The position numbers and the translations under genes are program-made. Positions 2,739 through 37,007 of a stretch of 64,000 nt of DNA are shown in pieces. The notes beneath the pieces are model-generated. The model made no database searches, had not been told where the DNA came from, and saw only the letters and a program-made list of their open reading frames with translations. The stretch is from contig NW_026515670.1 of assembly GCF_025526975.1 (NCBI RefSeq), positions 434,001 through 498,000 on the forward strand. The letters are read 5' to 3'. Positions within the stretch are counted from its first letter, which is position 1; the number at the start of each line of letters is the position of its first letter. This DNA is from Fimicolochytrium jonesii. Lineage: Eukaryota.

Positions 2739-2796
2739 GACATGCAGAACACCCATACCGGGATCACTTCTGGGCACTATATATGACTTCGGCAGC

Positions 2797-3450: not shown

Positions 3451-3695
3451 TTTTTTGCGTATTGTGTGGTAGTCTGGGATATGGTAGTTGAGTATGGGAA
3501 CGTTGTTCTTACCTCTCTGGGGCGACTGACAGCTGTCTCTTGTTTTATACTTGCGGCGATTTCCTCTTCTTTCATTTTACTCTTTCATTTCTTTCATTTT
3601 TAGTCATAGCTATTCACCCGACGTCCGCCCGCTTTTCGCGTACGGCCGCACTATTGTACTCATTGTTTGTTTTATCTTTCACTTAGATAGACTCA

Positions 3696-3883
3696 TGTCA
3701 CCTTAGGGTAGGGCATGAGATCACGTGTAGCATAGATTATATTGGAGTCCTACGCTCTGGGGTTACTCCCGAAGGGAAGAAAAGCCTTCGGGCGGCGCCC
3801 CAGGAGGTAGAAACTCTGGAATTCTTTCAATACATCGAGCGGAGACCGAGCTAGCGTCTGGCAACGGACCTAGCATTATTACA
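3696..3883 (+). repeat. 5' LTR of gypsy element A (5'-truncated)
   Basis: Aligns with 11266-11465, ends in ...TTACA, lacks the first 19 bp and has an internal deletion of about 12-13 bp. Confidence 0.9.
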
Positions 3884-3896
3884 TGGTAGCACCACC
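3884..3896 (+). promoter_or_regulatory. primer-binding site, probably initiator tRNA-Met
   Basis: TGGTAGCACCACC immediately follows the LTR-terminal CA. TGGTAGC is complementary to the usual 3' end of eukaryotic initiator tRNA-Met. Confidence 0.7.
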
Positions 3897-3922
3897 CTTC
3901 AAGATCTGTCTGGCAACCTACG

Positions 3923-5435: not shown

Positions 5436-5830
5436 CCGCCTGCAGGGTCTCAGCGTCCACACAACCCGAGGGACCTACCGGACCCCGACTGCAGGACACC
5501 ATTCCGGAATAACGCCCCGGGCCCGTCACCGACAAGCACACGTTCATGGTTCATGGACGTGTTGGCGGTATCTTCGGCCGCATCCTCATAGACACCGGTT
5601 GCAATACCATGCTCGTCAGCGACTCAGTCGCACAACGCCCTGATCTTAACACGTACCAGTGTCCCACAACCCTTGAGGTGCGCTGGGGTGACAAAGCCGG
5701 ATCATATGGCGCCACGCGGATGATTTGCGCCGACCTCTCCGTCTTCATGGAGGAACGAATACCTCATAAGACCCCTCCGGTCCCGTTTGTCGTGGCCCCG
5801 ATCCGTGCGGATGTTATCCTAGGGCTACCC

Positions 5831-6359
5831 TGTTATGAATGGGCGGAGCCGATGGAAATAGAGGCGACTTGTGGTGCAGGTTGTTGACAGGTAATGGTAT
5901 TCAGACCGAAACAAGAACTGGAACAAGACTAGGAAGAACTGGTGTTGATCTGCTGGGGGATCAGGAAGTGGGGAGCTCAGGGAGGCGGCTATTTATGTTT
6001 TTCTGGGAAGGCTGGGGAAGCGTGGGGAAGCAGAAGGGTACGGAATGAGAGGGAAGCCAAGAGAAGCGCCAAGGTTGGGGAAGCATAGAAACAGAAGACT
6101 GGGGATGGGGTGGCTACGCTGAGGCTGTGGGCGGGTACGTGGGGAAGTATGGAGAAGGGTTTGTAAGCGCCGAGTGTTGGGAGGTGTGGCTACGTGCGGC
6201 TGCGTGGAGAAATGAAGGCAGTGGCAGGTGTGGGGTAGCGCGGCTGCGTGCGGCTGCGAGGTTTGGCAGATGTCAGGTTTTGACAGGGAATTGACATTGA
6301 CTGACTGTTGGGATGCTGTCATGAGGTAAGCGCATGGTATGGACGCGTCGTCCATAACA
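5831..6359 (-). mobile_element. solo LTR related to gypsy element B, inserted in the protease of element A
   Basis: Ends are TGTTATGA...CCATAACA with a perfect 5-bp TSD TACCC (5826-5830 and 6360-6364). It shares blocks with the LTR at 23753-24290 (GAAGAACTGGTGTTGATCTGCTGGGG; GCGTCGTCCATAACA). Removing it rejoins protease DVILGLP|YILDL. Confidence 0.93.
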
Positions 6360-7977
6360 TACCCTACATCTTGGACCTTGCCCTCATACGCTTATGGCGC
6401 GACAATGGGTTCCCGGCGCTTCAATTTGAGGCTAACGCAACCGTACTAACTTTCCGAGCTAAACCCTCCACCCGTCGATGGCAGCAACCCAGCGCTTGCA
6501 CGGCCCGGTTACTCGAACCTCATACGGCCCTCGCCCCCGCCGTTTCTACCCCAAGCGAGCGGCCTTAAATGAGGAGAGCTTCCTCACGGCCAAACAATTC
6601 AAGCGAGTAATCAAGAGGGATAAGACCACCGAGGTCTATACCGCATGGGTCTCACGCACGGACACGGATGTGGACCTGGCCACACACAACACCCTTGCGG
6701 ACGTCGCCGAAGCCGAGGCCAACTTTGTTCGCACGATAGAGGCGAAGAAACGTGCGATCCTAGCGGACCGAAAGGCAACGGCCACCCCCCCCGGATACCA
6801 CCCCGGAGGACCCACTCCTGTCGGTTGCCGCCGACCACCCTCTTTGCCCCACGTTGGAACAGTTTACAGATACCCTCTTCACCGAACAGACCGGCCTGCC
6901 GCCGGACCGCGGCGACGACAACTTCAGCATCAATCTGAAGCCCAGCTCCAAGCCTGTCATGCTCCCACTCCGCCACTTGGCCCCCGACGCACTCAACAAG
7001 CTACGGCCGCAACTCGAGCGCCTATCATCCCGTGGGTGGATCTCCCACTCTAAGAGCCCCTGGGGGGCACCCGTACTGTTTGCCCCAAAGAAGGACGGTG
7101 GCCTCCGCTGCTGCATCGACTACCGGGCCCTCAACAAGATGACCCATAAGGACGCCACGCCCCTCCCGAACCTCAACGAGCTTCGGGACCGCCTCGTCGG
7201 CATGAAGGTCTTCACCGCTATCAACATCCGCGATGCCTACCACTGCATCCTCATTCGGGAGGAAGACCGTGAGAAGACTGCCTTCCGGACGCGCTTCGGC
7301 CACTTCCAGTACAACGTATTACCCTTTGGGCTGACAAACACACCCAGGACGTTCCAACGCCTCACGAACAAACTCCTGGGTGACAAGTACGATTCATACC
7401 TCATCTCTTACCTCGATGACATCCTCATTTTCAGTCCCAACATGGACTCACACATCGGGCATGTCACTGAAGTGCTCAAGACCCTCTCGGCTCACCGCCT
7501 TCACGTGAAACCGTCCAAATGGCAGTGGGCAGTGGACCAGGTCAAGTTCTGCGGGCACATGGCCAGTAAGGACGGCCTTTCCATCGCCCTATCCAAGGTC
7601 GAGGCTGTCCGCGCTTGACCCGAACCCACCAGCGCCCTCGAGCTCCTCTCCTTCATGGGGCTAGTCAACTTTGTCAAGGAATACATTCCGCATTATGCTG
7701 ACACAGCCCTCCCACTGACCAACCTTCAATCCGGCACCCGCCCGTGGCAGTGGGGCGCCGAGAAACAAGCAGCCTTCGACACCATCAAGGCGCGCGTCAC
7801 CGATGCCCCTTCCCTGGCGTTCTTCGACCGTGATAAGTTCCCTACGTCTTCTCCGACGCGTCGGGCTTCGCCGTAGGGGGCTGGATCGGTCAGGGCACGG
7901 ACTGTCAAGGGAATCGTCTCGATCGCTCGGAACGCCCTGGAGAGGTGGTACAGTCACAGAGAGAAGAGAAAAATGTT

Positions 7978-8024
7978 TGGGGAAGGTAGGACTCAAACCC
8001 ACGCCACCTGGGTGAGAGCCAGGT
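7978..8024 (-). pseudogene. 3' half of a tRNA-Glu(CTC)-like sequence (tRNA pseudogene or SINE fragment)
   Basis: Minus strand: anticodon arm CCTGG-CTCTCAC-CCAGG, variable loop TGGC, T-arm GTGGG-TTTGAGT-CCTAC, 3' acceptor strand CTTCCCC-A, then a T5 run. The D-arm is absent. Confidence 0.65.
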
Positions 8025-9837
8025 GACTATCGAATACCTCCCCGGCGAGTTCAATCACATCGCCAACATCCTCAGCCGCACACCGCTGTACGCCCCAAAG
8101 TGCGCCAGCTGTCAGATGAAGGTCGAGGTGATCTCCATTGTAACCGGAACACCTATACCGCACATCACCGGCCGCCTCCCTACCGACGCCGAGTGGCTCA
8201 CTGCGCTTGACAATGACCAGTTCTGCAAGGACACCCTCGCCCACCTGCAGACCACCGCAACAAACCCCGATGACCCCTCTACCCTCTCGGGTTTTGCCCG
8301 CCGCCTCACGCGCGACGACCGCGGCTTCCTTTTGTACCATGGCCGCCGCTACGTCCCCGAGGGCCTTCGGGGCCCGCTCCTCCGGTTCTATCATGACTCC
8401 CTGGCCAACGGCGGCTACTCGGGTGTCCAGCGCACCGTCGCCAAACTCCTCGCGCTCTACTACTGGCCCCGCCTCAAGCGCGAGGTCCACCAGTACGTCC
8501 GAACTCGTCTCAACTGCGAACGCAACAACCAGGCCCCCAACTTCGGGCTCCTACGCAGCATTCCGGTCCCCGACAAGCGCTGGTGTTGCGTCGGCTTGGA
8601 CATCTACTTCCCCAAGACAAACTCGAAGGGGGGTGAAGTGGGAGACGAGTCCGTCATGGACAACGGAGCCGTCCTCATCCTGGTGGACTACTTATCCAGC
8701 CGCGTAATCCTCCTCAAGCCCCACGCCAAGGCGACGGCAAAGGAACTCGCCCGGCTGTTCTTCGACCAGGCCTTCCGCATCACGGGCATGCCCCACATGA
8801 TCATCAGCCATCGGGACACCAAATGGACCGGCGCCTTTTGGAAGCACCTCCTGAAGTGCGCCGGCGTAGAGCAGGAACTCTTGTCGGCACGACACCAACA
8901 GACCGACGGCAAGACAGAGAACGTCATCAAGACAATCAAGAAGATGATGGTCCCCTACCTGAACGACACCAGCTCGAACTGGCGTAAGATGCTTCCCCTC
9001 CTTGAGTACAACTACAACAGGACGCCCCAGACCTCCACGGGCATGTCCCCGTACGAGATCGACATCAGGTACATCCCAAAGGTACCCGACCAATGGGGTA
9101 CCAGCGACTCAACAGAGCAACTGAAACACGCCAATCGAAAGTGCATTGAGGAGCGCATGCAGCAACTGATCGAGGTAAGCCCCATCGTTCAGCACAGACT
9201 CCGAGAGGCCCAGAAGAGGCAGGCAAGATACTACGACAGAAACAAGAATACGGATGCGTCCGTAGTAGGCAACCAGGTCCTGCTGAACCGCGAAGGCATC
9301 CAGATCAAGAGTATCTTGGCCCGAAACCAGAAGCTGTCCGCGCTGTGGATCGGGCCCTTCACCGTCAGCGGAAAGGGGCCCCACCCGGACACCTACGAGC
9401 TGGAGCTCCTCCATGAGTTCAGTGGACTACACCCGGTGTTCCACGTCAACATCCTACGCAGGTACAACCCTCTGGAGAACGGCCCATACCGAAAAGTGGA
9501 CGCGCCACCCCCCCCCCCCCCCCGAGGAAGTCAACGGCAAACTCGAACACCGAGTTGGAGACATCCTCGATTCCAAGTGGGTACGCAACACCGAGATGTT
9601 CCTGGTCAAATGGGCCGGCTACGATGTGTCCCAGAACACCTGGGAGCCACTCCACCACGTCCGCGACACCTCAGCCCACAAGCGATATGTCCGAAAGCAA
9701 GCCGCCAAGCGCCAGGAGACTCGGGAGACCAAGGGGAAGGAGAGAGCGGCAGTCTCTCGTCGCTGTAAACATATCTGAACCTTGTACATACATCAAAACA
9801 GAGTTTCTACTGTCCGAAATGATCATTACCATTGCGG

Positions 9838-10077
9838 ACCCATGCGGGCGGGTACTTAGTACCAAGGCCTATGATGCAGGCGGTCACGTAGTACAAGGGC
9901 CTATGAGGCGGGCGGGTACGAGGTACCAGGGCCTATGCGAGCGGGCAAGCGAGGTGTCAGGGCTCATGCGGGCGGGTATGCAATACCAAGGCCCAAGATC
10001 CGGGCGGGTACAAGGTACCATGGCCTATGCAAGCGGGTGCGAGGCACCAGGGCTCAGGACGATCGGTGAAGTACCAA
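9838..10077 (+). repeat. degenerate tandem repeat, about 8 units of 27-32 bp
   Basis: Consensus close to GGGCCTATGCGGGCGGGTACNAGGTACCA, repeated head to tail between the pol stop and the end of the antisense gene. Confidence 0.8.
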
Positions 10078-10144
10078 AGGGAAACGCTTCAAGGAGATCA
10101 AATTCAACAAAACATATACAAGAAAGAAGAACGACGACGCCAGG

Positions 10145-10902
10145 CTAAATACCAGCCTGTTTGGCAAAAGACCATTGGCAACGTGTGCCGTGGCAGGCGG
10201 CCCCCATGCCACAACGCCGCGGGACGAACTGCTGGACGTTCATCTGGCTAAAGGGAGCGCGTCACGTCAACGGCGGGACCTGTCAAAGATTCACGACTGT
10301 TGTACTTACGCGCAGACATGCCCCATACAATTGATGTGGTCGCAGGGCAAGACCTGCACGTCCTGGGCCAGAGAATTGCAGTCGGGCCACACACAGGTGC
10401 AGGGTAGCCCCTGGCAGAAGAGCGGCGTTTCGCACTCCTCCTCAAAACTGTCAACGTAGCCGCACGTAAACCCACGGACGCGCGTGTCGGTCTGTCGGAA
10501 AGAGACGTGAGCTGTCAGTCACCTCACGGGAACCACCCATAACATGCGGTTCCTTACGGTGTCATCACAGAGCGGGAGGATGCAAGGCCGGCATATAACG
10601 TGCTGGCACGCTGAGAGGAACATCTTGCGGGGGCCAAACGTGTTGCAGTTCCAACACGTAGGTCGGGCCGGTGGAACGGGGGCTCCGGGGTACTGTCCGA
10701 GTGCACCTCAGGGGTGTCCTGAGATAGAATTGGTCAAACCACGTAACTTCGGTCAATTGGGTACCCTCCGTAGACTCACCACTTGCTGTCGCTTGAGAGC
10801 CTTCTTTAGGCTGTCCCCTTTGGTGGGGCCCTCGCCTACTCGCTTCTTGCCCGATGATGGGCTGGCAGCGGCAGGCTTGGCTGGAGGAGCTACGCTGGCC
10901 AT
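10145..10902 (-). CDS. antisense 4-exon gene inside gypsy element A encoding a ~189-aa protein with two RING-like zinc fingers (possibly frameshifted)
   Basis: Exons 10902-10780, 10718-10558, 10491-10310, 10247-10145. Introns are 61, 66 and 62 nt with GTGAGT/GTAAGG/GTAAGT donors and YAG acceptors. Motifs CWNC-x12-CQHVICRPC and CVWPDC-x11-CDHINCMGH. The model needs +1 nt in the C5 run at 10682-10678, or an alternative acceptor at 10693. Confidence 0.75.
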
Positions 10903-11004
10903 GATGAAGATGGGAACGGCGACGGTGAGAGGTTTACGAGATTGCGAGCAAGAAATGTAAGTCCGAGGACTGGTGGGAAGGTGCCGCAGGGACCACTGCC
11001 TTCC

Positions 11005-11012
11005 TTTTTATA
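11005..11012 (-). promoter_or_regulatory. TATA box of the antisense RING gene
   Basis: GCATATAAAAAGG on the minus strand, about 100 nt upstream of ATG 10902. Confidence 0.6.
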
Positions 11013-11246
11013 TGCCGCGGGGACAAGGACCATGGCCCCCCACGACCAGCTGAGGCCGATTCATCTCTACCTCATATCGGCGTGGATCTGATTGCCATCA
11101 TGGTGACCACCGGTGACGCCAGCCGCTCCAGTAGAGCCATGCGCACTCCTCATGGCCGACACCTGTGTTAGCTCCACATCAAGTAGCAGCGGGGAGCGAC
11201 TGACAGGTGCGGTCGGTGTCGGAGTGACACTTGGCTCTAAGGGGGG

Positions 11247-11465
11247 TGTAATGAGGTGCTGCAGGTGTCACCTTAGTGCGGGGAAGCCCGTAGGGCATGA
11301 GATCACGTGTAGCATAGATTATATTGGAGTCCTACGCTCTGGGGTGACTCCCTAAGGGAAGAAAAGCCTTTGGGCGGCGCCCCGGGAGGTAGAAACTCTG
11401 AGATTCTTTCATTACATTGAGCGGAGACAGAGCTAGCCTCTGGCAATGGACCTAGCATTCTTACA
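11247..11465 (+). repeat. 3' LTR of gypsy element A
   Basis: TGTAATG...TTACA, preceded by a PPT and homologous to 3696-3883. Confidence 0.92.
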
Positions 11466-12044
11466 CGGACCCCCTGGACCACCTCCCCCGCCGTTTCCGT
11501 CACCGTCTCCATCATCACTCGAAGACGAATCATCCATGTGCTTTCGCAAGTACGTGAGTCGCTTCATCAACTTGTCTCACTCTCGTCTCTCGGCCGCATC
11601 ACTGCGGCGCTTTGCCTCTTTCGTCTTTTCTTTCGATATGCAGCCTTTTGCCTTATATCGTGACTCCGAGACTGCCTTACACCCAAGGTAGTCTGCCTCC
11701 TCCATCAATGCCTCGAACGACCCCTTCTTTTGCTTTGATCGATCCAGCTTTGCCTTCGTAAACGCCAGGGGCTTTGCGAGGTTCTCATGGTTATCCTTCC
11801 GGTACCTCAACGTGGCCACCTCTGTCGCCAATCAAAGAGCTTCTCTCACTCGGGCTTTCGACATCGAAGAGTCGCTTGCAGACGCTGCGGACGATGCGTG
11901 CGTAGAGCGCGTTGTCGGTCGTGAGGGTCCCGGCGGAGGTGCAGCTGGAGGGGCTGCTGGGGTCCCCGACTTACGGCCCGTTTGCTTCTTCTTGCCGTCG
12001 CCGCTCTTCTTGCCACTCCCGCCGTTCTTGCCTCCCTTCGCCAT
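11466..12044 (-). pseudogene. antisense accessory ORF, copy 2 (two CGA>TGA stops, 3' end cut at the gypsy LTR)
   Basis: ORFs 11832-12044 and 11577-11831 are in frame and homologous to 2797-3450. TATAAAA lies at 12143-12137 on the minus strand. Confidence 0.7.
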
Positions 12045-12566
12045 TGTTTCGCGTATCGTGTGGTCGTCTGGGATATGGTAGTTGAGTATGGGAACTTTGG
12101 TCTCACCTCTCTGGGGCGACTGACAGCTGTCTCTTGTTTTATACTCGCGGCGTTTCCCTCTTCTTTCATTTTACTCTTTCATTTCTTTCATTTTAGTCAT
12201 AGCTATTCACCCGACGTCCGCCCGCTTTTCCCGTACGGCCGCACCATTGTACTCATTGTTTAGCTTTATCTTTCACTTAGATAGACTCGTGAGTTTGAGT
12301 GGGGGTGTTGGAGGTATCATCCTCCCGAGTCCCCGGTTAGGGTTCCCGTAGTTTATTTCCTCACGTGACTCCCCTCCCGCTTACGCCACACTTCCGAGTA
12401 CGGGACTTCACTCTTTTCTTCCCTTTCGGACCTTGTGTCCTCATTACACCACAGACTTTTCTAAACAAGACAATACATACTTCACAGTACTACATCTCAC
12501 ACAACATAGAGTTTGCTCAGTCATCTGCTTCCTCTGCCGACTACTGCTAAGTGCTCAGTTCCAGCA
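11466..12566 (+). mobile_element. 3' end of a copia-type element (second copy): antisense ORF, PPT and LTR
   Basis: 11466-12289 is a diverged copy of 2873-3695. It is followed by TTGAGTGGGGG (PPT) and an LTR at 12306-12566 with ends TGTTGGA...TCCAGCA. Confidence 0.8.
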
Positions 12567-21300: not shown

Positions 21301-23084
21301 CAGTAATCCCACTCCTTTACCCACATGAGGACCTCACGATTGACTCGCTGTAGGGAAACATCCTATCAGCTTATGCAGGTGTCGCCCCTTGGCTGACTAT
21401 GTCCTGGATGAGCAACCCACCTCGTCCCCAACAAGATCAATGTACATTCGTGGTGCGTATTTGTCGACCCAAAGCCTTTCTTTCGATGCCCCGTCCTTGG
21501 ACAAGATATTTTCTGCAATAATGGACCTTCCTCGCGCGTCGACCAAATCCCTCTCAGCGGCTGGATTCGCCTTTTCAGCACCGATCTCATCCAGTAGACT
21601 GTAAACGGATGTTCGGCCAAGAAGGTTTGCCTTAGCTGTTACGGTGTCGACGGGATTGGCCGTCGCGTTCGTCCGGCGATGTGGGAAGTAAAGCCGTGCT
21701 CCTCCAGTAGATGTGGCCATTCGGAAGCGGTTGGTATTGGCAGGCAGAATGTGGTAGTTTTTGGTTGGAAACTGCATGAGTGCTCTTGATTCGGGCATCG
21801 ACGTCGAGCTAGGCGCGGCGGCTTCCCATACATTTGCCGACATGCTATCGATCTCAATCGGTGCGGAAGATGCATCTGCTGTCACCGGGTGGTGTGGAGG
21901 GGCAATGTCGGCTTGTCGCATAATGCGTGACGCATGCACTGAAGGACCACCATCCTCCTCGTCAGAGTCCGGATATTCAAGTGTCTGTTGTTGAAATGAA
22001 TGCGACTGTTCCCCTACTTGATCTGGTCGCCTCACGGCGTTGCTCTGCGTAGCACGGGCCGCACCCCTGCTCCGAAACTCCTTGGGCATCGCACTTGCGC
22101 TCGCCTTGACACCCAGCTCATCATCTTCAGATACCCCACCCAAGGAGATGCGCTTTGTGGGCCTAAGGAGTTTGATCTCGTCTAGTGGCCTTTTCCTGCT
22201 TGCATCCAATATTTTCCGCCTTTCTGATGGCAACGCCCCCGTAATCCCCGGTAGAAGATGTCCAGGCAGATCAGCAGACACTTGATTCGCGGTGTGCTTG
22301 CCAAGCCAGCTGTTCCTGAAAGCATCGAAAGCAGTCTCATTCTCCGCATTTGATTTCCGATCAGAGTTTTTCGACGGTTGGGAACGATCGGGGATGTTCG
22401 CCCGCGGCGGCAAATTCCCTCCAGGAGCCACCTTCCCCGAATCAACGGCTGCATCCTCGTCGGAATCGTCGTCAAATGTGAAAGCTCGATTACTGAAAGT
22501 ATTCCGTTTCGTAATCGGACCGCCCGCCGTCGAAGTCTGTCTCGCTTCGAAAACGTTTATTCCCCACTGTGATGATCCAGCGCTAAAATCCATCACGTTC
22601 TCGGATTCGCCGAAGCTCAAGGCGGTGAGAGGCTCCATGCTGGCTGCGGATCGCGTAGGATGGGAGCTGACGACGGGCAAGCTGCTTCTGATTTGAAAGT
22701 TACTCGGCATTGGTGTGGGCTGCTCCATTCGTGAGCTGGGTGAGGTGAAAGTCGGCGGGGAAGACGAAAACGGGTCCGTACACTGGTCTGCACCGTTGAA
22801 GTTAACCTCGAGTCGCAACCCATCGAAAACGACCGGAGGTTGGCAATCACCTGGTGGTCTTTGTTGAGGCAGTAGTGCACTTGCTGCGGCTCCGCCGTAC
22901 CGTTTCAAAGGGGAAGGGAATCGCCCTGACAAAGGACATTTGCCGGGTGAATGGACGGACAGGAATGAGGCACACATGCGAGAACGGCCTTACCCGACTG
23001 CTCGCTCTCCATAGCTAGCATAGCGTCCATCTCCTCGCCATGTTCCGCCTCCCACACATCCATATCTTCTAGTGGTTCGTCCAT
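18324..23084 (-). CDS. CTF18: chromosome transmission fidelity protein 18 (RFC-like clamp loader subunit), multi-exon
   Basis: LWVDKYAPRMYIDLVGDE, Walker A GAPGLGKTTLAHVIA, EINAS, RPIICICND, GDIRSCINTL and C-terminal YKFNEGFSNAVRKP. The start exon MDEPLED is inferred. Confidence 0.93.
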
Positions 23085-23197
23085 TCTGTCTGCACTGCAG
23101 CTGCTCGCAATGTGAAGGGCATGTTTTGGGTAGCTGAGCTTGGTTGAGGGGGCGTGCGCCCGTTCGGACATGATCCGGAAAATAACGCGTTGGATTA

Positions 23198-23290
23198 CAA
23201 GTTGCCTTCATCGGCGACGCCTCAGGCAGAGGTACAATGATGTGGATGGCAGATAACCACCACGGAAAATGGGATGGGGTGAAATCTAGA
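23198..23290 (-). ncRNA. candidate Fanzor omegaRNA scaffold / element right end
   Basis: About 90 nt directly 3' of the Fanzor stop, with two hairpins (GTGG-TGG...CCA-T-CCAC; TGCCT...GGCGTCGCC...AGGCA), ending at a TA (23197-23196). The position matches described Fanzor loci; the boundaries are inferred. Confidence 0.45.
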
Positions 23291-23752
23291 CTACCGGTTA
23301 CGGGAGAATGCGTCTGGTCTGCGGCCATTGCCAAACACCACCGAACGCACAATCGAGAGGAAATTCTTGGTACTTAGGACGTCCCGATTGTGCACTTTCA
23401 TCCGTAGTGGTTGTCTTCCAGGAATCTCAAATGGCGTCCAGTCTTGGTTGATACATTCGGGGTTGGGGCAACCCACCAATCCATGGATCAACCCACCAAT
23501 CCATGGACGAATTCCATTCTTCCCTTTCTAGCTTGCCATGGCCGAGAAGACAGCCGTCGTCGGATGTTTTTCTTCACACGACCGTGGCAGTTGGGGCACA
23601 CGGACGACGTTCGATACTCATCTAGCAAGTAACATGGAATGCTGTTTCTTGCAAAGAGTGTGCGGAATCTAATTGCCATGATGAGTTAGCATATTATAGT
23701 ACATAAAAAACAATGATGGTCACTCACCCCTTGGTCTTTGATGACTCCTGAA

Positions 23753-24290
23753 TGTTATGATCTCGACGACGGAGGCGGAAGCGAAGTAGAGAAGACAGGG
23801 CGAGAGTGATAGGCGACAAGAGATTGTATTGGCGAAACAAGAAACAAGGACTAGAACAGGAGATGAGAAGAACTGGTGTTGATCTGCTGGGGAGGAAGGG
23901 GATGGACGAAGAGAGGCCGGCTATTTATAGATAGGCAACCCAGCAGATCAGAGAACAACAACAACAAGAGGGGACTGGGGGGCGCCAGCTATGCTCCTAG
24001 AGCGTGCGTGGCGAGCGTAGAGAGCATTGCTACAGCTGCTGGCTATGGGGAAGCAGTGGGGGGTGTGGAGAAGCCGAGGGGGGATTGGCGAAATGAGAGG
24101 AGAGTGGAGGAGTGGCAATATTGCAAGAGGATTGGCGAAATGAGAGGAGAGAGGGGGAGTGGCATTGACATTGACATTGACACTGACATTGACACTGACA
24201 TTGACATTGACATTGGCGTTTGACATTTGGCGGTTGACATTGGCGGCTGTCAGTAGGTAAGCTTATGGTATGGGCGCGTCGTCCATAACA
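23753..24290 (-). repeat. 3' LTR of gypsy element B
   Basis: Minus strand TGTTATGG...TCATAACA follows the PPT AAAGAGAGGGGTGA. Contains a GACATT microsatellite and is related to the solo LTR at 5831-6359. Confidence 0.92.
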
Positions 24291-27200
24291 TCACCCCTCT
24301 CTTTAGCGGCGGCGGCGGCGGCGTCGAGTTTGGTGTGGCCGCAGAGGAGGTGCTATGGGGACAGAGGAAGGCTTGTTGGGGTACGCGTTGTGGAAGTCCT
24401 GGAGAAGTGCGTCGGTATGGGTGAGGTGTTCCACGGGCTCCCAGGTGTTCTCAGAGTCAGGCCAGCCCTGCCATTTGACCAAGTACTGAAGGCGACGACG
24501 ATGGATGCGAGAGTCAAGGATGGCTTTGACAACCCACTCTTCTTGACCCTCAACGGTCTCTGGGGGCGCGGGTTCGGGTTCGTGTCGTTCGGGGATGGTG
24601 AGGCGGGGTTCGAGGAGCGAGACATGGAAGACATCGTGGATTTTGTACGTAGGCGGGAGCTTGAGCCGGTAGGCGACGGGATTGATTTTTTCAACGATGG
24701 GGAATGGACCAATCTTGCGATGGTCGAGTTTCTGAGAGGGCCGGGTTGTCTGGAGGTTTTTGCGCAGGAGCCAGACGTGGTCGCCAGGCCTGAAGTCCGG
24801 TCCAGGAATTCGTTTGGCGTCGGCGTAGCGCTTCATTTGATCTTGGGCTTCCTTGAGCTCGAGGGCGAGCTGTTCATGGACTTCCCTGATTTGTTTAGCG
24901 CGGGCTTCAGCGGCGGGGTTGACGGATTCGGAGGTAGCAGAGGCCGCGAAACTGAAGCGGGGGTGGAGACCCTTGTTGGCGTAGAAGGGGGTGGTCTGGG
25001 AGGCAGACTGATGGGTGTTGTTGTAGGCGAACTCGGCGGACGTCAGAAGCTGTTTCCAGTTGTCCTGTTGGTGGTTGCAAAAGCATCAGAGATACTGCTC
25101 CAGGATCTGGTTGGTGCGTTCCGTCTGGCCATCGCTCTGGGGGTGGAAGGCCGAGGAGAGGTTGGCTTTTGCCCCAAGGAGTTCGAGAAGTCGACGCCAG
25201 AACCGGGACTTAAACTGAGGTCCTCGGTCAGAGATGACGTCGTCGGGGAGGCCGTGGAGACGGATGATGTTGTGGAAGACTAGGTCGGCGGTGGATTCGG
25301 CGGATTCTGACTCGCTGCAGGCGATGAAGTGGGCCATCTTGGTGAGGCGACAGTTGACGTTCAGGATGGAGTCGTACCCGTCCACGGGAGGCAGACCGGA
25401 GATAAAGTCCAGGGACCAAGATCCCCAAGGGCAGGTAGGGATACTGTTGGGCTGGAGTAGGCCGTATGGTTTGTGTCGACTGGATTTCGCTTGGCTACAG
25501 GTATCGCAGGACTTGACGTAGGCCTTGACGAAGCGCCACTGGCCGGGCCACCAGTAGTTGCGGGAGGCGAGTTCGAGCGTCTTGGACATCCCAAAGTGGC
25601 CGGCTAGGGGAGTATCGTGCATGTCGTGGCAGACTTCAGCTCGGAGCTCGTTGGTGGGGACATAGACCAGGTTATCGTGCAGCAGGATCCCATCTTCATC
25701 TGAGAACCGCTTGATACGATCTTGGGTTTCCTCAGTTCGTTGGGCGAGGGGTATCTTGAGCTTTTCGCGAATGGTCTTAGCGAGGGGATCAGAGGCCTGG
25801 GCGGCCTTAATCTTGTCAAGCAGCGTGGTATCCATGGGTGTGAGGTAGGCAGCCGGCGAGTCGAAGGCGTTCGGGAGTCAAAATTGTGGTTGCCTGGGAG
25901 CGGAACGCTTCTTCCCCCTCTTTTAGCTCATGTTCGGAGCGTCGGGAGAGGGCATCGGCTTGGTGCTGCTGGGAACCGGGGCGATAGGTAATGACAAAGT
26001 CAAAATCCGAGAAGAATATCGACCAGCGGGCTTGGCGGCGGTTCAGGGTGCGGGTGGTCATGAAGTACTGAAGGTTTTTGTGGTCGGAGTAAACGGTGAT
26101 CTTGTGACGGGCGCCAATGAGATGGTGGCGCCACTGGGCAAAGGAGTCTTGGATGGCCAGAAGTTCCTTGTCGTAGATCTCGTAGTTGATCTCTTCGGCC
26201 GTGAATTTGCGAGAGTGGAAGGCCACGGGGTGGAGCTGATTGTCCTGGTCAGGTTGGAGGAGAACTGCGCCAAGAGCGAAGTCGGAGGCGTCAGTTTCGA
26301 CGACGAAGGGCTTCTCTGGGTCAGGGTGAGCAAGGATGGGGGCGGTGGTGAATGCTTTCTTCAGGTTCTCGAAGGCGGTGTTTGCGGCGGGTGTCCAGGC
26401 GTACGGGATGTCTTTCCGGGTCAGGGCTGTGAGCGGGGTAGCGATCTTGGAATAACCTTGGATGAATCGGCGATAGAAGTTGGCAAAGCCGAGGAACCGC
26501 TGGACGCCTTTGACATTCTTGGGAGGTTCCCAATCCGTGATGGCAGCGATCTTCTTGGGGTCCATCTGGATGCCTTTCTTGGAGATGATGAAGCCTAGGA
26601 ACTCAACGGATTCGCGGTTGAATTCGCACTTCTCTGGTTTGGCGTACAACCCATGCTGTCGGAGGCGGGACAAGACTTCGCGGACATGTTTGGGGTGATC
26701 TTCGGGGTTCTTGGAGAATATCAGGATATCGTCGAGGTAGACGACAACAAACACATCGAGAATGTCGCGGAAGATGTCGTTCATCAGGTACTGGAAGACG
26801 CCAGGAGCATTGCTGAGTCCAAAGGGCATGACATTGTATTCGAATAGGCCGTAGCGGCAGCGGAAGGCGGTCTTCCATTCATCGCCCGGGCGCATGCGTA
26901 AGAGGTTATAAGCGCCGCGGAGGTCGATCTTGGTGAGACGGCGGGCGCCGCGCAAACAATCCATGATACCGTTGATCAGGGGCAGGGGGTAGCGATTCTT
27001 CACCGTGATGCTGTTCAGGCCTCGATAATCGACGCAGAGGCGGAGAGAACCGTCCTTTTTCTTCACGAATAAGACTGGCGCACCGGCAGGGGACTTTGAG
27101 GGTTTGATGAATCCTTTGGCGAGGTTTTCTTCGAGGTATTCGCAGAGTGCCTTCATTTCTGGTTCGCTGAGGCTGTAGATCGGGCCGAAAGGTGGCTGCT

Positions 27201-28171
27201 TGCCTTCTTCCAGATCGATTGGACAGTCGTAGGGCCGGTGCTTGGGGAGAGTGTCAGCATTTCTCTTTTCGAAAACAGTCGGCGAAGTCTCGATACTCGG
27301 GGGGCAGGAAGTCTTTGATGTCTTTCTCGGGTGTCGGGGGTTACTGGGGCTAGGCGAGGCCGGGAGATCGGGTTTTCGCAGGGTTGGCGTAGGCGACAAA
27401 GACCTGGTCATGCCTTGCTGTGACCCGGAAGGCTGGGGCGGAGATGAACGAGACTTGGAGCGGCGTGGGAGCCGGTTCTGGGGTGCTGGAGCGAGATACC
27501 TTGAGTACTGGAATCGACCATGTTTCGTCGACGGGGACTTCATCCTGGGGGATGCGGATCAAGGGCTTGGGGGTTCTGGCGGGTGCTGGGCTCGGGGGTG
27601 CTGGAGAGTTGTCCCAATTCGTGAATTCATGGTACAGACAGTCGCAACGGAAACCGACCGAAAGGTTCTTGAAATCAAGGTTAATGTCGTGGAGGCGGAC
27701 CCAGGGGAGACCAAGGAGGATTGGAGCATGGGGTGATTTGGTGACATGGAAGACGAGTTCTTCGAAGTGGTCGTCGACCCACAGGCCTACTGGTTGGGTG
27801 TGATGGGTGATTGGCCCAGCAGAGCTGGGTTGACCGTCAACGAGTTCGATCATCAGTGGACGCTGATGCGGGACTAGGGCGATGCGGTGTTTGCGGGCAA
27901 AGTCTCTGTCAATGAAGCAGGACAGGGCACCGTTGTCGATCATGGCTGAGGTAGGTATCGGGGCGCGGCTGGATGATACCATGATGGTAACAGGGTAGTT
28001 GAAGGGTTCGACGGGACCCAGCGCAAGCATGGCGCGGGGGTTAATTTCGGAGTTTTCGACATGGGCAGCGGCTAGGAGGGTTGTGTCGGCTATAACGGAG
28101 TCGGGAACCAGGGGGGTGGCCTCTCCCGTTGCAGGAGCTGCGAGGTTAGGAGGCCCGGGGCGGTGTGTGTT

Positions 28172-28216
28172 GTCCAGTCGCTGGGGCTTTACTGCGGCTG
28201 GACTTTGGGAAAACCC
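28172..28216 (-). promoter_or_regulatory. -1 programmed ribosomal frameshift signal (gag-pol)
   Basis: G GGT TTT in correct phase (28216-28210), a 6-nt spacer, and stem GTCCAG-c-CGC...GCG-a-CTGGAC. The -1 frame is open into the protease ORF. Confidence 0.75.
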
Positions 28217-29164
28217 TGTTCGGTGGAGGGTTCTTTGATGTCGACGTTGGCGGCACGGGTGGTGGTCTTGTTCTTGACGGGGCAGACTTTTGCAATGTGC
28301 CCCGCGCCACCGCAGTAAAGGCAGAGGTTGTTGGAAATGCGGCGTTGGCGTTCCTGAGGGCTCAGAGGGCCGCAGGGACGAGCGGCGTCAATCTGCATAG
28401 GATCGCTGTGGTCGACAGTGGTGGTAGTAGTAAACGAGGTATGGGGAACCGGGAAGGTCTGGCGGCTTCTGTTTCGCTCCAGGCGGCGCTCAAACAGCCG
28501 GTTATCGCACTGGATAGCCTGCTCCATCACCACATCAATGGTGGCCGCAGGGGGCATCGTGAGCATCAGGTCTTTGACGTCTTCTTTAAGGCCACGGTGG
28601 AAGGTAGCAATCAGGGCCTGGTCGTTCCAGGAGACATCGCATTGTAGCTGGCGGAACTCAGCAACGTACTCGGTTGCCGCACGGGTTTGGCGAAGGTTCT
28701 GGAGCTTGTTTTCCGAGGTGCGGACCCTGTCGCTGTCTCCGAAGATCGATTGCATCTGACTGATAAAACTATCAAAGTCCTGAATCTGCGAGCAACGTGA
28801 ATCTCATCCCGGTAAAACTCATCCAGGGCTGGATCTGGGATATGGACGAATGTCAGCCCATGTATTACTAAATTTGAAAATCAAAGTTGAAGTAGAACAT
28901 CATACCCGCATGTTCGTAATCCACGATGAACGCGGAGAACGCCTCGATGTTCATGCTCCTGTGTGACGGAATCTGTGATTCCATCTCAGCAACGCCGGCA
29001 TTGATCTTCCGCTCTGTCATGTCTCTTCGAAAGTACCGAGACTTTGTCTCGACCGCCCGTTGATTGGATGTGTATCTGATATGGGGTGGTGCATTGTGAG
29101 GACGCTGCAACGGAATGTCGCCGCAATGGGGATGGTGGGGATAGGGGCGGTGGGAGCGGCAGCG

Positions 29165-29355
29165 GCAACGGGGGGCTGGGGGGTGGAGACGGAGACGGAG
29201 ACGGAGACGGAGATGGAGACGGGGATGGAGACGGGGATGGAGATGGAGACGGGGGGCTGGCGGGCGGAGACGGGGGGCTGGCGGGCGGAGACGGGGGGCT
29301 GGCGGGCAAGGACGGGGGGCTGGCGGGCGGAGACAGAGGGGGGGGGGGGGGGGGG
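29165..29355. repeat. GC-rich simple repeats inside a Fanzor intron
   Basis: GGAGAC/GGAGAT hexamers, about four 21-bp GGGGGGCTGGCGGGCGGAGAC units and a poly-G run, all inside the intron 29396-29076. Confidence 0.85.
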
Positions 29356-30780
29356 TAGCGGGGACAGCAGGGCAGTAGTAATCAACTGAAACTTACCGAA
29401 ATGGCCGCTCCTTCTTGTTGTCTTGACAGAATAGGAGGTCACGCTTGCCCGGATCAATGCAGACGATGTTTGGAGCCTCCCTTAAGTCGTCAATGTGGTG
29501 CTCAAAATACTGTGAGGCGCCTATGACAAGGCAGGTGCAGACCATGATTACACAAAAGAGGGCACCGCGGGGGGAGGGGGGGGGGGAATATACTAACTCA
29601 CCTAAATATGGCATTGCGTCCACCGCAAGGCTGTACGCAAGTGGTTCATCCTGGGGAGGAAACAGAGCCCATAACTTGTCGAGCACGGTCCGCTCAAGTC
29701 GTGTGAGGCGGGCAAACTCCTCTTCGGTTGGAAACTCTTCAAATGTTGCATACTTTGTAAACTGACGGACACGCTGATAATAGTGTCGCCGCTGCGCTCG
29801 GTTGACTCCAGCTCTACGGAGATGCAGTACGACTTGCTTCAAACCAAGCCTTTCATTGACATAGCGCAGAAGCATTTGAATGAAATGCTCTTGTACGTTG
29901 ACTTTGAGGTTTGTGAAGATGCTTGTAGCCGTGTACCCTGCGGTCTGTTGGCAATATTGCATGCGGATGGGGGCGAATCCATGAACATTACAGTAGTCTT
30001 GAACCCATGGACGCAACTCTTGCGCGATGACCGGATTGCCATTGTAGCCTGGATTGTTGAGCAGCTCAAACATCACACTGATGTGCTTGTCAGTGATGTC
30101 CGGGAAATCGTGTAGAGGATGATCAGCTGTGGTGGGCAGACGTACTAGTCAGGACATTGTTATGGGAAATATTATGGGAAATATACAGTGTACCTCAAAA
30201 ACTCACCAAGGTAGTACTTGAGAAAGAAGGTGGTGTGGCGCGCAAGGACGTGAACATTGCCGATGAACGTTGTCAGGCGCTCCCTTTGAACTTGATTCTG
30301 ATTATGGATTCGGTGAAGGGAAACCTTGGTGCTGGCATGCGTCTGCGGGCGGGGTCGTTGAACTGGTGGTGGTGGTGGCGGGGGCTCATACACCAGGGAT
30401 CCCCCCGGTGTGCTGGGAAAAAGGAAAGGGATGGGAGCGGGGAGGTTCAACGGACGCTGCAGACCCCTGTCCACCGGTGAAAGCCCTCGCTGCTGGTGCT
30501 GCTGCCCGTCTTCATCGCCGGAACTCTCGCTAACCATGTCTGCAATTGCTTGGGGCAAGTTTTTGACAGAAGGTGGGAATTCGAATCGCGGGGGCTGCAG
30601 TGGTGTCTGCACAGCGGTTGGCGGATTTATGGGCAGCCGCGGGGTAACCGGAGTAACTTTCCTCCTCTTCCGCCGTGGTGTGGTAGCTCCCGTAAAGAAG
30701 CCACCCCACAGGTGCCCCTGGACCGCCTGGTGTGATGACATGTTGGCTGTGCTGTGCCTTTTGCGTGCCTGCTAGAGATG

Positions 30781-31139
30781 AGGTGTATGCAGGTGATTGC
30801 CGTGATAGCTGTGTGTCAACGAACTCGCATCAGTGCTGTGGTAATGAAGCTGAGAACGGTGAGGAATTGCGGTTGTTACCTGGTGGCGGTTGAAGGTGAA
30901 ACCGGGGATGCTTACTGCTCACAATTGCGATTGGTATGTAATTGGGAGTGAGGATCCAGGTGAGGATACCACGTTTTTTACACGCGTGTAAAGGATGTGG
31001 GGTAGCTTCCTGGTGTGTGTACTGTACATGTGTGTGTGCAGACCTTCGGGAAGGTGTGCCGAGTAGCTTGCATTCTCTGCACTGCCAAAGGCGCTTCCTT
31101 CTCAAAAAAAAAAAGTCCGGCAATCACCTGCAACACCTG
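30781..31139. mobile_element. inverted-repeat-bounded segment (MITE-like, or left end of the Fanzor element)
   Basis: AGGTGTATGCAGGTGATTGCCG (30781-30802) is the inverse of CGGCAATCACCTGCAACACCT (31118-31138). The right side ends CACCTG-TA. Confidence 0.6.
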
Positions 31140-32200
31140 TACAACCAGCTCTCTATCTGCAGAGAAGAAAAGGGGGAGGGGTACGGTAACTATAAAAAGG
31201 AAGCTGTGGTTGAAACTGGTTGTTTACAACACTCCCTCTCAGACTACAGATCGAATTCAGTCGCAGTCGTCGTTGCAGTAGCTCTGCATTCTGATCTCAT
31301 GGAACGTTCCGCTCTTCAAGTCACGATCGCTCGAGTCCAGCTCGGAGTAGGAGCCGGGCTCGCGATTCGCTCTTCAAGTCACGATCGCTCGAGTCCAGCT
31401 CGGAGTAGGAGCCGGGCTCGCGATTCGCTCTTCAAGTCACGATCGCTCGTGTCCAGCTCGGAGTAGGAGCCGGGCTCGCGATTGGTTACGCCATCAACTT
31501 TATGCTGTCAACTTCCCCTATGGCAGCGGCGTACGGTGTATCGGCGCCTAGGACAGCCTCATCATCGTCTTTTGGTCGATATATGTCTTTCTCGCATGTT
31601 GTACTTCGTTGAGGTAAGGGTGTTTTGCGTGGATGAGCGTTTTCCATACCGAATCGTTTAACGATATTGTTCTTTAAGGTTCGTATGGATTGCATTGCGT
31701 ATGAGGAGGTTGGCGGCCGCTAAGTTCTTGCGGGTCTGATTCTTTTCGTCATATAGGTGATTTATCGCCTCAATTTGTTGAGTGATTTCTAGGGCGGCCG
31801 CGGCGGCTTCTCCGGCGTTAGCTACGTTGGATGCTCTGATGAGTTTGATCTCATCGTCTTTGAAGGCGAGAGGCATGGTAGTTTGAAGTTCATTCCATTC
31901 CATGAATGCTTTGATCTCGTCTTTCCAGATCTGGTAGTTCTCGCCGTTGGCAGAAAGGACCTCTACATGGTTCAATTTGGAGGCGGCAACAGTGGGGTTA
32001 CTGGTGGATGTCATGGTTAGGTTTTAGGGTAAGCGTCTTGTTGTTTTAGGATGTATAGATTTTTGCTAGCGGGATTTTTGTGTAGTGGCGTAGGCGGTCT
32101 GGCTCTAGCTCGTAGGTGGAATGGGTATTTGCGTAGGTGGTCTTTCTCTAGAGTGGGGTGGTCGTCTATGGTGCTGATAACGTGTTGTGGAACTCGTTAC
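31140..32200 (-). mobile_element. internally deleted Ty1/copia element resembling the Bianca lineage
   Basis: Minus strand: LTR end ...CAACA plus PBS CGTTATCAGCAC (32182-32171); gag LSANGENYQIWK (32014-31670) fused to RT fragment KRFGMENAHPRKTP...KDIYRPKDDDEAVLGADTPYAAAIG; PPT GAGAGGGAG, then an LTR start TGTTGTAAAC at 31231. Confidence 0.8.
31310..31483 (+). repeat. tandem repeat, 3 x 58 bp
   Basis: CGCTCTTCAAGTCACGATCGCTCGAGTCCAGCTCGGAGTAGGAGCCGGGCTCGCGATT starts at 31310, 31368 and 31426, with one mismatch. Confidence 0.95.
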
Positions 32201-32672
32201 TTTATTCCCCTTCACGACGGTGAAGACGGCGAAGAATTGGGGTTGTTACCTGGCCGTTGGATCATGTCCAGACTCTCCGAGCGAGAGTGCGACATGGCCT
32301 CCTTCCCAAACCTTTGTCAACGGGATCGTCCTGGCTGACCTTGCTCGACAAGTTCCGGCATTGAGGTTTAAACATTACGTGACCAACATCTCCTGTACAT
32401 GTAGCAAGCCGAACACCCGAAATCTTCGCATGTGTGCGTGCTGCATCCGTCAGTCAAAGCCGGATCAATCCATTCGCCCAAAGAAGGACCTTTTATTGAT
32501 AAGGAAATTCACATATACCGTGGCTTTCAGCGGGAATGGGCATAGAGGAGGGAAAATTGACGAGATATACTACCAAACGTCATTGGCAAACATGAGGAGA
32601 GACTACGGGGCACAATGAAGTGAAGATTATGAGGAGTGAAATCAAATTGAAGAAATTGGAACGTGGAACTCG

Positions 32673-33200
32673 TCAGGCCAAGACTGGCAAATAGTCTGTG
32701 CGGACGTAAGCTGGCGGGCCCTCGATATCCAGTCGAAGGAGTATCTGATGTTCTGCGGTAACGGATCCGGAGGTCTCGGCAGGTCTTTCGACCACGCCGG
32801 TCAAAGCCACCGCCTTCGACCCAGCCTGTAAGGTTCCTCGTGTGATTTGTGTGATCTCGATTTCGAACGTTATGTCGCGAGCGAACTTGGGATTGATCAA
32901 CGGCTTTCCGCGCTCAGTGGGAGTCCAGATGATTTCCCGGGCGAGCACCATGGGAGCCTGCGGCGCTTTGAGATCGCCTGAAGCGGTGGTAGAAACGGCG
33001 ATGTAAAGGACACTTGCAGCAAGGAATGTGCGGAGATCGAGATGCAAGTGCCCTCGGACAATGGTGCTAGAGTCCGATACTGTGAAGCTGACGTCCGAAA
33101 AGGCGAAGTCTTTGACTATCCGATCATGGTGCACTGCTTTCAATCGTCCGAAGAGGCAGCCGAGTGACTTAACACTGTTTATGGCTATAGCGGCCTCCAT
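32673..33200 (-). CDS. hypothetical protein, 175 aa, beta-strand-rich
   Basis: Single ATG-started ORF with globular composition; no family recognised. Confidence 0.45.
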   Translation of the reverse strand: MEAAIAINSVKSLGCLFGRLKAVHHDRIVKDFAFSDVSFTVSDSSTIVRGHLHLDLRTFLAASVLYIAVSTTASGDLKAPQAPMVLAREIIWTPTERGKPLINPKFARDITFEIEITQITRGTLQAGSKAVALTGVVERPAETSGSVTAEHQILLRLDIEGPPAYVRTDYLPVLA

Positions 33201-35205: not shown

Positions 35206-36257
35206 ATTATCCGGTCCATTTATCGTGCCAACAAGCTGCACGCGCGTGAAAAAGGATGCCGAAGGTGTGAAGCTCAACAGTAGCCGTTTGAACTTGAATG
35301 AACGTAGTGCGGATGAGGCTGGGATGTAAGCAAGCGGATGATCTCAATAGGCCGCCGTAGGAAGTGTAAATGCTAGAGGTATGAACCCTTTCAGCTGCAG
35401 ATATACTGTCCAGTAAATGCCATTGCACGGTACTGTACAACGCTTGAGTTTGTACCATGCCTCTGAAGGTTAACATCCGACCCTGAATCATAGAGGGTCT
35501 CTGCCTCGAGAGGGGAGTGTTAAAAGCACCCTCGCACTCCCCGGGGGACTCGGAGCTGGTAACATCGGCGGTAACGAAGAGTGCAGTACAACATGCCATG
35601 CCGATTTCAGCTCGCAATGATTTGAAGCGCTGTCGATTCATGGAAACGACCCCAGTACTAGAAAAGAAAAGCGGTTCTGGTTTCTCAATCCCCCATCCGC
35701 AAACTCATGGAAGCCCAGAGCCCAGACCAGCATCCATCCACCAAAGTAATTTAGGAAAACCTCTTCGGGAGAAAAGAGGCTTTTCCTGTACCGAGGACTT
35801 TCAATAAATTGTAGGGGCGCGTGTCGTTCTCAGCCAGAAGTTTTCTCATATTACTGCCTCCCAAATATTTCCCGAAGTCGCAACTATTCAGCGTCAACAA
35901 CACGGCGGGTCCGTCCTTCTCTCTCTTTTCCTTATTCCATCATTCGTCCTCGTGCCGCTGAACCTTGACTATATGCTCACGTTGTATCCCCTCGCTACTT
36001 GGCGGTCTTTCATTTTTTTTCACTTCAGCGGCTGCTTCATTATCTTTTTCTTTCATCTCTTTAATTTCAGCTTGAAGCTGAATACCTCTGACGTCCATCC
36101 GCAGCCGTCTGCTCTTTTTCTTTTCTGGCTAGCAACAGACGCGGGGGATCAGACAGCAAACTCGAGAAGTATTTAAGCTGGCCGATCGAAGTGCCATCCC
36201 CAATCCTATCAACCAGTCTCCTCCTTCCTTTGCAGGTTGCAACACATATTTTTTACG

Positions 36258-37007
36258 ATGCGCGGAATCCTTGTTATCCTCTTCGCCCTCCTGGCCGTCG
36301 CCAGCGCGGCCTCCGTTCCCGGCATCTGCACCGAGTGCTGCAGCAAGCCCCTCAGCGAGCAGCCCCTGGCTTGCTCTCGCATCGCGTGCCCTTGCCCTTC
36401 TTCTGCGCCGACGGTCTCCGCGGCGCCCTCCGACAACACGTTGACCGGCCCGTCCACTTGCGAGAAATGCTGCCTGTGGCCCGCCGAGGACAAGCCCAAG
36501 GTCTGCTCCCGGATCAGATGCCCCTGTCAGTTCTTCACCGCGAAGGCAACACCCTCCGCCGTTCCCACCGAAACCACTTCGACCTCCCCTTCGATTTGCG
36601 AAAAATGCTGCCTGTGGCCTGCCGAGGACAAGCCAAAGATCTGCTCCCGCCTCAGGTGTCCCTGCCAGTTCTTCACCGCGAAGGCAACACCCTCCGCCGT
36701 TCCCACCGAAACCACTTCGACCACCCCTTCGATTTGCGAAAAATGCTGCCTGTGGCCTGCCGAGGACAAGCCAAAGATCTGCTCCCGCCTCAGGTGTCCC
36801 TGCCAGTTCTTCACGGCGAAGGCGACTCCTACCGCTACTCCTACTCCTGCCGTTTACGACGAGACCTGGGGCCCCGCCGTGTGCAAAGACTGCTGCACCA
36901 AGGCTTACCCTTGGGATGCCGGAGTCTGCTGGAGGATCAAGTGCAACTGCCCCGCTGGGTTGCCACCCAAGAAAGCGGCCGCGACAACCGCCGCCGAGCT
37001 CTTCTGA
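36258..37007 (+). CDS. secreted cysteine-rich repeat protein, 249 aa, five 6-Cys modules
   Basis: Signal peptide MRGILVILFALLAVASA; five C-x2-CC-x10-C-x4-C-x-C modules joined by Thr/Pro/Ser linkers. The three central units are near-identical 135-bp DNA repeats. Confidence 0.88.
   Translation: MRGILVILFALLAVASAASVPGICTECCSKPLSEQPLACSRIACPCPSSAPTVSAAPSDNTLTGPSTCEKCCLWPAEDKPKVCSRIRCPCQFFTAKATPSAVPTETTSTSPSICEKCCLWPAEDKPKICSRLRCPCQFFTAKATPSAVPTETTSTTPSICEKCCLWPAEDKPKICSRLRCPCQFFTAKATPTATPTPAVYDETWGPAVCKDCCTKAYPWDAGVCWRIKCNCPAGLPPKKAAATTAAELF

Follow-up and report, generated by a model that had tools for sequence, protein, structure and literature searches.

A decayed, intron-containing Fanzor1 gene in Fimicolochytrium jonesii and the predicted nuclease of its multicopy family

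The window analyzed here is a 64,000-nucleotide (nt) stretch of the Fimicolochytrium jonesii genome (contig NW_026515670.1, positions 434,001 to 498,000), and all positions below are those of the window. Its minus strand carries, from 30741 to 23291, one pseudogene for a Fanzor1 protein, a relative of the RNA-guided nuclease SpuFz1 of Spizellomyces punctatus, which consists of six exons and five introns with GT..AG ends and is interrupted by a retrotransposon. The start codon is an ATG at 30741 and the stop codon lies at 23293-23291. An earlier reading of this DNA made without database searches (the sequence-only reading) had reported three RuvC motifs, a zinc finger and an N-terminal PRRKRRK, and all of them are found on the minus strand in this gene. 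The PRRKRRK, which resembles a nuclear localization signal (NLS), occupies residues 22-28 of the window copy; the RuvC motifs are DPG (29455-29447), DEYRTS (23622-23605) and NRD (23389-23381); and the four cysteines of the zinc finger are those of CPNC and CPNPEC, halves that are separated by a frameshift. Residue numbers for the lesions refer to P0023, a full-length paralog of 761 amino acids (aa) from F. jonesii (model EV422DRAFT_39733). The features of the locus are as follows.

30207 to 30741, minus strand: exon 1, with the ATG, PRRKRRK, a Pro/Gln-rich extension of ~135 aa (predicted disordered) and the start of the folded core; 88% in tblastn with P0023
30127 to 30206, minus strand: intron 1, 80 nt, phase 1, branch site at -26; an alternative 62-nt form with its acceptor at 30145 is less likely
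29602 to 30126, minus strand: exon 2, REC domain; SpuFz1 match E 5e-29
29521 to 29601, minus strand: intron 2, 81 nt, phase 1, intact, GTGAGT..TAG; in models P0034 and P0035 its 3' end is translated and runs directly into AYC
29397 to 29520, minus strand: remnant of exon 3, with an in-frame loss of ~122 codons (rest of REC, WED) at ~29515/29510, then the RuvC-I DPG
29076 to 29396, minus strand: intron 3, 321 nt, phase 2, C-rich simple repeats; intron-derived text in models P0010 and P0035
28906 to 29075, minus strand: exon 4, matched by P0023
28835 to 28905, minus strand: intron 4, 71 nt, phase 1; encloses all 7 indel rows listed for 28791-28950 in run X3
28781 to 28834, minus strand: exon 5, left piece, ending at the second deletion; a loose end of run X1 at 28781 continues as KAFSLRQKSE
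23753 to 28780, minus strand: 5'-truncated Ty3/gypsy chromovirus, from Pfam matches and open reading frames (ORFs), with its 3' long terminal repeat (LTR) at 24289-23753
23728 to 23752, minus strand: exon 5, right piece (QESSKTK), matched by P0023
23669 to 23727, minus strand: intron 5, 59 nt, phase 2, GTGAGT..TAG, CTAAC at -21
23291 to 23668, minus strand: exon 6, with the RuvC-II Glu, zinc finger, RuvC-III Asp and stop, frameshifted by a 20-nt duplication; SpuFz1 match E 7e-17
23196 to 23270, minus strand: predicted omegaRNA scaffold and right end of the element, 75 nt; loose ends of run X1 at 23196, match to SpuFz1 by eye, hairpin at positions 8-29
23181 to 23195, minus strand: predicted 15-nt guide in the host flank, by analogy with SpuFz1, just upstream of a CTF18-like gene
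30781 to 31142, no strand assigned: upstream region with a pair of 22-bp inverted repeats; TA/CAG at 31142-31138 as a weak left-end candidate

Our searches confirm the class of the gene, which had been called a Fanzor, by homology to SpuFz1 and P0023 (phmmer E 1.5e-133 for P0002). They also uphold the assignment of the parts at 23.3-23.7 and 28.8-30.7 kb to the same family, as separate searches with exon 2 plus the DPG stretch and with the opening part of the last exon each had SpuFz1 as their top match (E 5e-29 and 7e-17). The Fanzor matches of both halves are well beyond chance. The four window pieces follow one another in order at 88, 96, 96 and 85% identity to P0023 and at 33, 42, 61 and 46% to SpuFz1. 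That the halves come from different Fanzor copies joined by recombination between gypsy elements is highly improbable: although the 5' LTR and the 5' target duplication are gone, so that the insertion site offers no comparison of its two sides, the halves, which cover residues 1-590 and 632-760, are collinear without overlap, every piece is 85-96% identical to P0023, and the flanks form one ordinary host gene neighborhood.

The window copy is dead and cannot encode a whole protein, as had been proposed, and three lesions bear this out. The first is the in-frame absence of P0023 residues 356-478 (~122 codons), which takes away most of the WED domain; it begins ~6 nt past the intron 2 acceptor (~29515/29510), and in a contig of run X3 the coding sequence continues from 29510. 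The sequence-only reading had placed lost exons at 29601-29521, but intron 2 is intact there and the loss starts only beyond its acceptor. The second lesion is the segment missing before QESSK, which that reading had recognized and which corresponds to P0023 residues 591-631 (41 codons); a run X1 contig goes on from 28781 as the expected peptide KAFSLRQKSE. At this site the Fanzor sequence passes directly, at ~28780, into the middle of gag. Parts of a Ty3/gypsy chromovirus can be followed from there (partial gag, protease, reverse transcriptase, RNase H, integrase, chromodomain and the 3' LTR), with stops and frame changes in pol, and contigs of three runs end at 23753, the end of the LTR. A gypsy insertion had been described in the gene, and the element is indeed present, but this is not a clean insertion, as the element starts within gag and both its 5' LTR and 41 Fanzor codons are gone. 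The simplest account is that a single deletion across the Fanzor-gypsy junction removed both, and decay likely proceeded by insertion of gypsy into exon 5 followed by this deletion. The third lesion, also noted before, is a 20-nt tandem duplication at 23469-23507 that shifts the frame between the zinc-finger halves; a related contig covering 23420-23590 has 20 gap letters.

The F. jonesii family comprises 30 gene models on 20 contigs of differing length; some of these models may be pieces of one locus. P0023 is the only full-length model, all five checked motifs occur in 8 of the 30, and P0001 reads like the window locus, its private deletion junction included. The family is thus multicopy, dispersed and largely broken, as is the case for a mobile element. 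In the AlphaFold model of P0023, the mean predicted local distance difference test score (pLDDT) is 73, with values below 50 at residues 1-39 and 41-131. Foldseek matched this model to SpuFz1 structures with E ~1e-48 and a target template modeling score of 0.84-0.86; SpuFz1 was best, above all Cas12, TnpB and Fanzor2 chains, and was followed by PpFz1 and GtFz1, the top seven all being Fanzor1 and the first Fanzor2 standing at rank 44. Homology and fold (WED, REC, RuvC and TNB) therefore both place the family in Fanzor1 (phmmer, Foldseek). Pfam gave no match for P0023, nor for SpuFz1, and a sub-threshold Cas12f1-like TNB match for one window exon.

In a tree made by a quick method with Shimodaira-Hasegawa-like approximate likelihood ratio supports (52 rows, mostly long proteins chosen from 219 fetched), the window copy lies among six family rows (support 100), the family is sister to a Gaertneriomyces protein (100), and both fall inside a 21-row clade with SpuFz1 (97). 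P0023 and SpuFz1 are 45.5% identical (281/618). The proposal of a distinct spliced family is thus borne out as far as a well-supported branch is concerned, but this branch lies inside the SpuFz1 clade, and spliced Fanzors have already been published. The wider group is large, since a profile search gave 5,047 representatives at E up to 0.001; the viral loci L007-L009 are distant (21-25%).

The five introns had been given as 62, 81, 321, 71 and 59 nt. The last four stand with GT..AG ends (29601-29521, 29396-29076, 28905-28835 and 23727-23669), while for intron 1 a length of 80 nt (30206-30127) is more probable than 62 nt, because the 80-nt junction is used in 13 of the 30 family models and the 62-nt junction in only one (P0001, this locus's own model), and because the 80-nt acceptor stands 26 nt downstream of the CTGAC branch site, which the 62-nt acceptor directly adjoins. 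Stretches of intron sequence have been carried into several gene models (intron 2 in P0034 and P0035, intron 3 in P0010 and P0035, intron 4 in P0008, intron 5 in P0007), so the sister copies contain the same introns. In a related environmental contig (run X3), every one of the 7 indel rows listed for 28791-28950 falls within intron 4. P0005, P0032, P0035, P0055 and P0072 skip or start at DKVFKHRK (P0023 residue ~423), in the segment deleted from the window copy, which hints at a possible sixth intron there.

This intron set has no counterpart among the relatives compared. SpuFz1 is intronless, with 638 aa in 1,917 nt, and three distinct metagenomic elements among six loci returned (L001, identical to L002; L003; and L004) have two introns each. 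All three have an intron at SpuFz1 residue 164, two at residue 585 and one near residue 533, the second introns of L001 and L004 being in-frame inserts with splice signals that were identified by eye. The introns of the window copy are at SpuFz1 residues 65, 244, 401, 458 and 524, and none of these sites is common to L001, L003, L004 or the intronless SpuFz1. On the simplest reading of these positions, introns would have been gained independently within the clade. Capture of introns by Fanzors is known, with up to ~9.6 introns per kb (PMC10530073), and the density in the window gene is ~2.2 per kb. The 20-nt duplication in exon 6 coincides with the codons for VHGL.G, the site of an intron in L001 and L003; its repeat unit is without AG, and the agreement in position is probably a coincidence.

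Downstream of the stop codon, two run X1 contigs depart from the window sequence at 23196, with flanks that are unlike. The 75 bases at 23270-23196, which start 21 nt past the stop, carry TTTTCC from their second base onward and terminate in TA, are predicted to be the omegaRNA scaffold and the right end of the element, a feature absent from the sequence-only reading. The SpuFz1 omegaRNA scaffold is also 75 nt (PMC10432273); it ends in TA as well, is offset by 22 nt versus 21 nt here, and shares 14 of its first 19 bases with the window scaffold (by eye). The start motif of the window scaffold recurs, ahead of a hairpin, in the right ends of L001 and L003, and a hairpin is predicted at positions 8-29 of the window scaffold. 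A search of 22800-33000 against Rfam was negative up to E 1, and an unanchored DNA alignment of three right ends was uninformative. By analogy with SpuFz1, the next 15 bases (23195-23181) would be the guide, ~100 nt upstream of the likely start of a CTF18-like gene (~23084, by our own reading). One downstream exon of that gene matches CTF18 with E 1e-20; another exon query gave no match.

As had been stated, no transposase is visible, and none of DNA transposon type was found among the 39 window ORFs scanned. It is quite unlikely that the Fanzor gene was only carried as cargo by a larger autonomous element, a DNA transposon or one of tyrosine-recombinase type, that has lost its transposase and left end here. 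In favor of this, no left end is recognizable and a copia-like relic lies upstream; model P0055, from another locus, combines a family fragment with a tyrosine-recombinase-like region (Phage_integrase E 6e-4, which is under the curated cut-off), and such associations are known for other Fanzors (PMC10530073). P0055 is, however, only one of 30 models and a nested insertion explains it equally well, the scanned ORFs lack a DNA transposase, and the SpuFz1 element is likewise without one. A search for a left inverted repeat gave a best local score of 17, versus a shuffled median of 19, and a second search 6 matches versus 4.6 expected, so that nothing matches the right end above chance; the locus may have lost its left end, and no clear terminal repeat was seen in L001 and L003. 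In the pair of 22-bp inverted repeats at 31139-31118 and 30802-30781, ~315 nt apart, one arm encodes the peptide SRQ.P, which the upstream region of P0010 contains twice; the repeats may therefore belong to the element as a recurring subterminal motif.

Residues were counted in 27 family models, with three fusion-like models left out, and in 39 relatives. The catalytic D-E-D triad is kept in the family (D383 in 21 of 23 covering models, E541 in 16/16, D606 in 12/12). Several target-motif positions are not. In SpuFz1, R96, Q129, Q130, N133 and R291 read the CATA motif and N385 binds Mg (PMC10432273). The R96 column, which holds the conserved REC-loop arginine of the target-adjacent motif groove and whose assignment is approximate since this loop is shorter in the family, has Gly in 15 of 16 family models and R/K in 32 of 36 relatives; the N133 column has Ala or Gly in 18/18 versus N in 19 and H in 8 of 37 relatives; and the N385 column has Gly in 22 of 23 versus N in 31 of 35. 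Q129 and Q130 are kept, and position 291 is variable. Because R96 and N133 are replaced throughout the family, we predict from the alignment that intact sister copies recognize a target motif other than CATA.

The same replacements bear on whether the family cuts DNA at all. It may instead have retained its fold and omegaRNA but lost key contacts, so that it binds DNA under RNA guidance while cutting little or not at all, and its long N-terminus, disordered and rich in Pro, Gln and acidic residues, could influence transcription; nuclease-dead TnpB derivatives provide a comparison for such a protein. In line with this, R96G (15/16), N133A/G (18/18) and N385G (22/23) are family-wide, an N385A substitution inactivates SpuFz1, and the ~135-aa disordered extension is absent from SpuFz1. 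We nevertheless think this improbable, since the D-E-D triad is retained, the copies are dispersed and mostly broken like those of a mobile element with no single domesticated locus, and L001 and L003 have long N-terminal extensions yet keep N385. Moreover, PpFz1, which cuts DNA (PMC11423790), has DPG at the RuvC-I motif, as the family does.

We therefore favor, at a probability of about 0.8, the reading that the window holds a dead copy of a multicopy Fanzor1 element from the SpuFz1 clade. When intact, this element likely encoded a spliced nuclease of 761 aa with a 75-nt right-end omegaRNA, which would cut DNA that matches the 15 flanking bases beside a target motif. If this nuclease works as SpuFz1 does, PRRKRRK would direct its import into the nucleus, where it would bind the 75-nt omegaRNA from the right end of the element and cut empty or excised alleles, and repair would then copy the element back; movement would depend on a transposase supplied from elsewhere. 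Among related contigs, 13 of the 19 exonic differences listed are synonymous versus 29% expected (p 4e-4), and this predominance suggests that the protein was under selection while related lineages diverged.

Several points weigh against this reading. The synonymous count covers only the sites listed, from shallow contigs. N385 is replaced by Gly at the very site where an Ala mutation abolishes SpuFz1 activity (PMC13434818), and the groove loop arginine, essential in GtFz1 (PMC11423790), is Gly in 15 of 16 models. P0023 deviates at 19 of 662 family-fixed columns and may itself have decayed. The fold of the predicted scaffold is not beyond chance (z -1.54, with 12 of 200 shuffles as good), its second half is unlike the long stem 2 of SpuFz1, and loop base G20 is T. 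Searches up to 34000 and in the window revealed neither a left end nor a terminal inverted repeat, and both the splicing of the introns and the expression of the scaffold are predictions. It is rather unlikely that the intact member is a working Fanzor which has shed most of the SpuFz1 motif-reading contacts, and hence is either a programmable nuclease with almost no motif requirement or an RNA-guided protein that binds DNA without cutting it and has a regulatory N-terminus, in combination with several independent intron gains in the SpuFz1 clade, five of them on this branch.

Among known systems, the family most resembles SpuFz1 and its element Spu-1 (PDB 8GKH, 9CEU-9CEZ; PMC10432273) in fold, domain order, D-E-D triad and zinc finger, and also in its many copies, the absence of an internal transposase, gypsy insertions in some copies and a 75-nt scaffold ending in TA. 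It differs in having at least five introns, a 135-aa extension and R96G, N133A and N385G. The narrow Spu-1 family consists of a single intronless ORF of ~630-640 aa at ~82% identity, whereas the window family has five introns, 761 aa and 45% identity; Spu-1 also has 30-nt terminal inverted repeats, with CA upstream of the left one. The nearest protein outside the family is the hypothetical protein P0033 of Gaertneriomyces sp. JEL0708 (53-56% identity), the sister branch in the tree, which keeps the loop arginine and DPN and whose model is without the long N-terminus. PpFz1 of Parasitella parasitica (PDB 9CF0-9CF3; PMC11423790), a fungal Fanzor1 matched with E 2e-34, shares DPG but is only ~20% identical and differs further by an additional insertion domain and a short ATN motif. 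Fanzors with introns, CrFNuc among them (PMC10530073), are likewise spliced genes with an NLS; CrFNuc, compared by its description only, is an algal, Helitron-linked gene.

The Fanzor class, its introns and its NLS are already known, and this locus, a fossil, leaves the view of Fanzor biology unchanged. A chytrid Fanzor family this close to SpuFz1 is apparently undescribed. We did not find it in literature naming Fimicolochytrium (judged by titles) or Fanzor with chytrid, a search largely confined to papers outside subscription. Fimicolochytrium and its accession prefixes are absent from the searchable supplement files of Saito 2023 (PMC10432273), and the Jiang 2023 supplements (PMC10530073) hold no mention, a weak negative since "punctatus" and "Rhizopus" are absent from them too. 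SpuFz1 edits the human genome, but its strict CATA motif limits its use, and a 2026 engineering paper counts a broader motif among the needs still to be filled (PMC13434818). A full-length paralog at 45% identity with natural changes at motif-reading residues is a cheap candidate for a test, and the non-overlapping intron sets within one clade offer a small, clean case for intron gain by mobile genes.

L001 (4695-4730) and L003 (511-560, approximate) have N-terminal PIP-box-like stretches, ITDFF and ITSFF, beside a basic NLS, which we take to resemble PCNA-binding motifs; if true, this would link Fanzors to replication forks. A scan of the first 80 residues of the fetched database proteins gave no canonical PIP-box.

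Upstream of the Fanzor gene, the copia-like relic at 31231-32200 (minus strand) has a gag-like ORF at 32023-31658 (DUF4219 E 0.08), three 58-bp tandem repeats at 31310-31483 and a purine tract followed by TG at 31231, and it may have disturbed the left end of the Fanzor element. A pairing of 31231-30800 and 32600-32183 as the two LTRs of one copia element is unsupported (score 71.5; shuffled 95% 66, maximum 85). Broken retroelements are clustered at 22-12300, with a copia-like pol at 699-2738, a second gypsy at 3890-9768, gypsy-LTR-like fragments at 5908-6364 and an 827-bp repeat pair at 2872-3697 and 11466-12291. An ORF at 36177-37007 (plus strand) begins with a signal-peptide-like segment and contains a cysteine-rich repeat of 46 aa (CEKCCLWP..C) in 2.7 copies, with no Pfam match. 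Host genes at 33917-63907 include those for a 60S acidic ribosomal protein, an arfaptin-like protein, REV1, an FtsX-like permease and talin.

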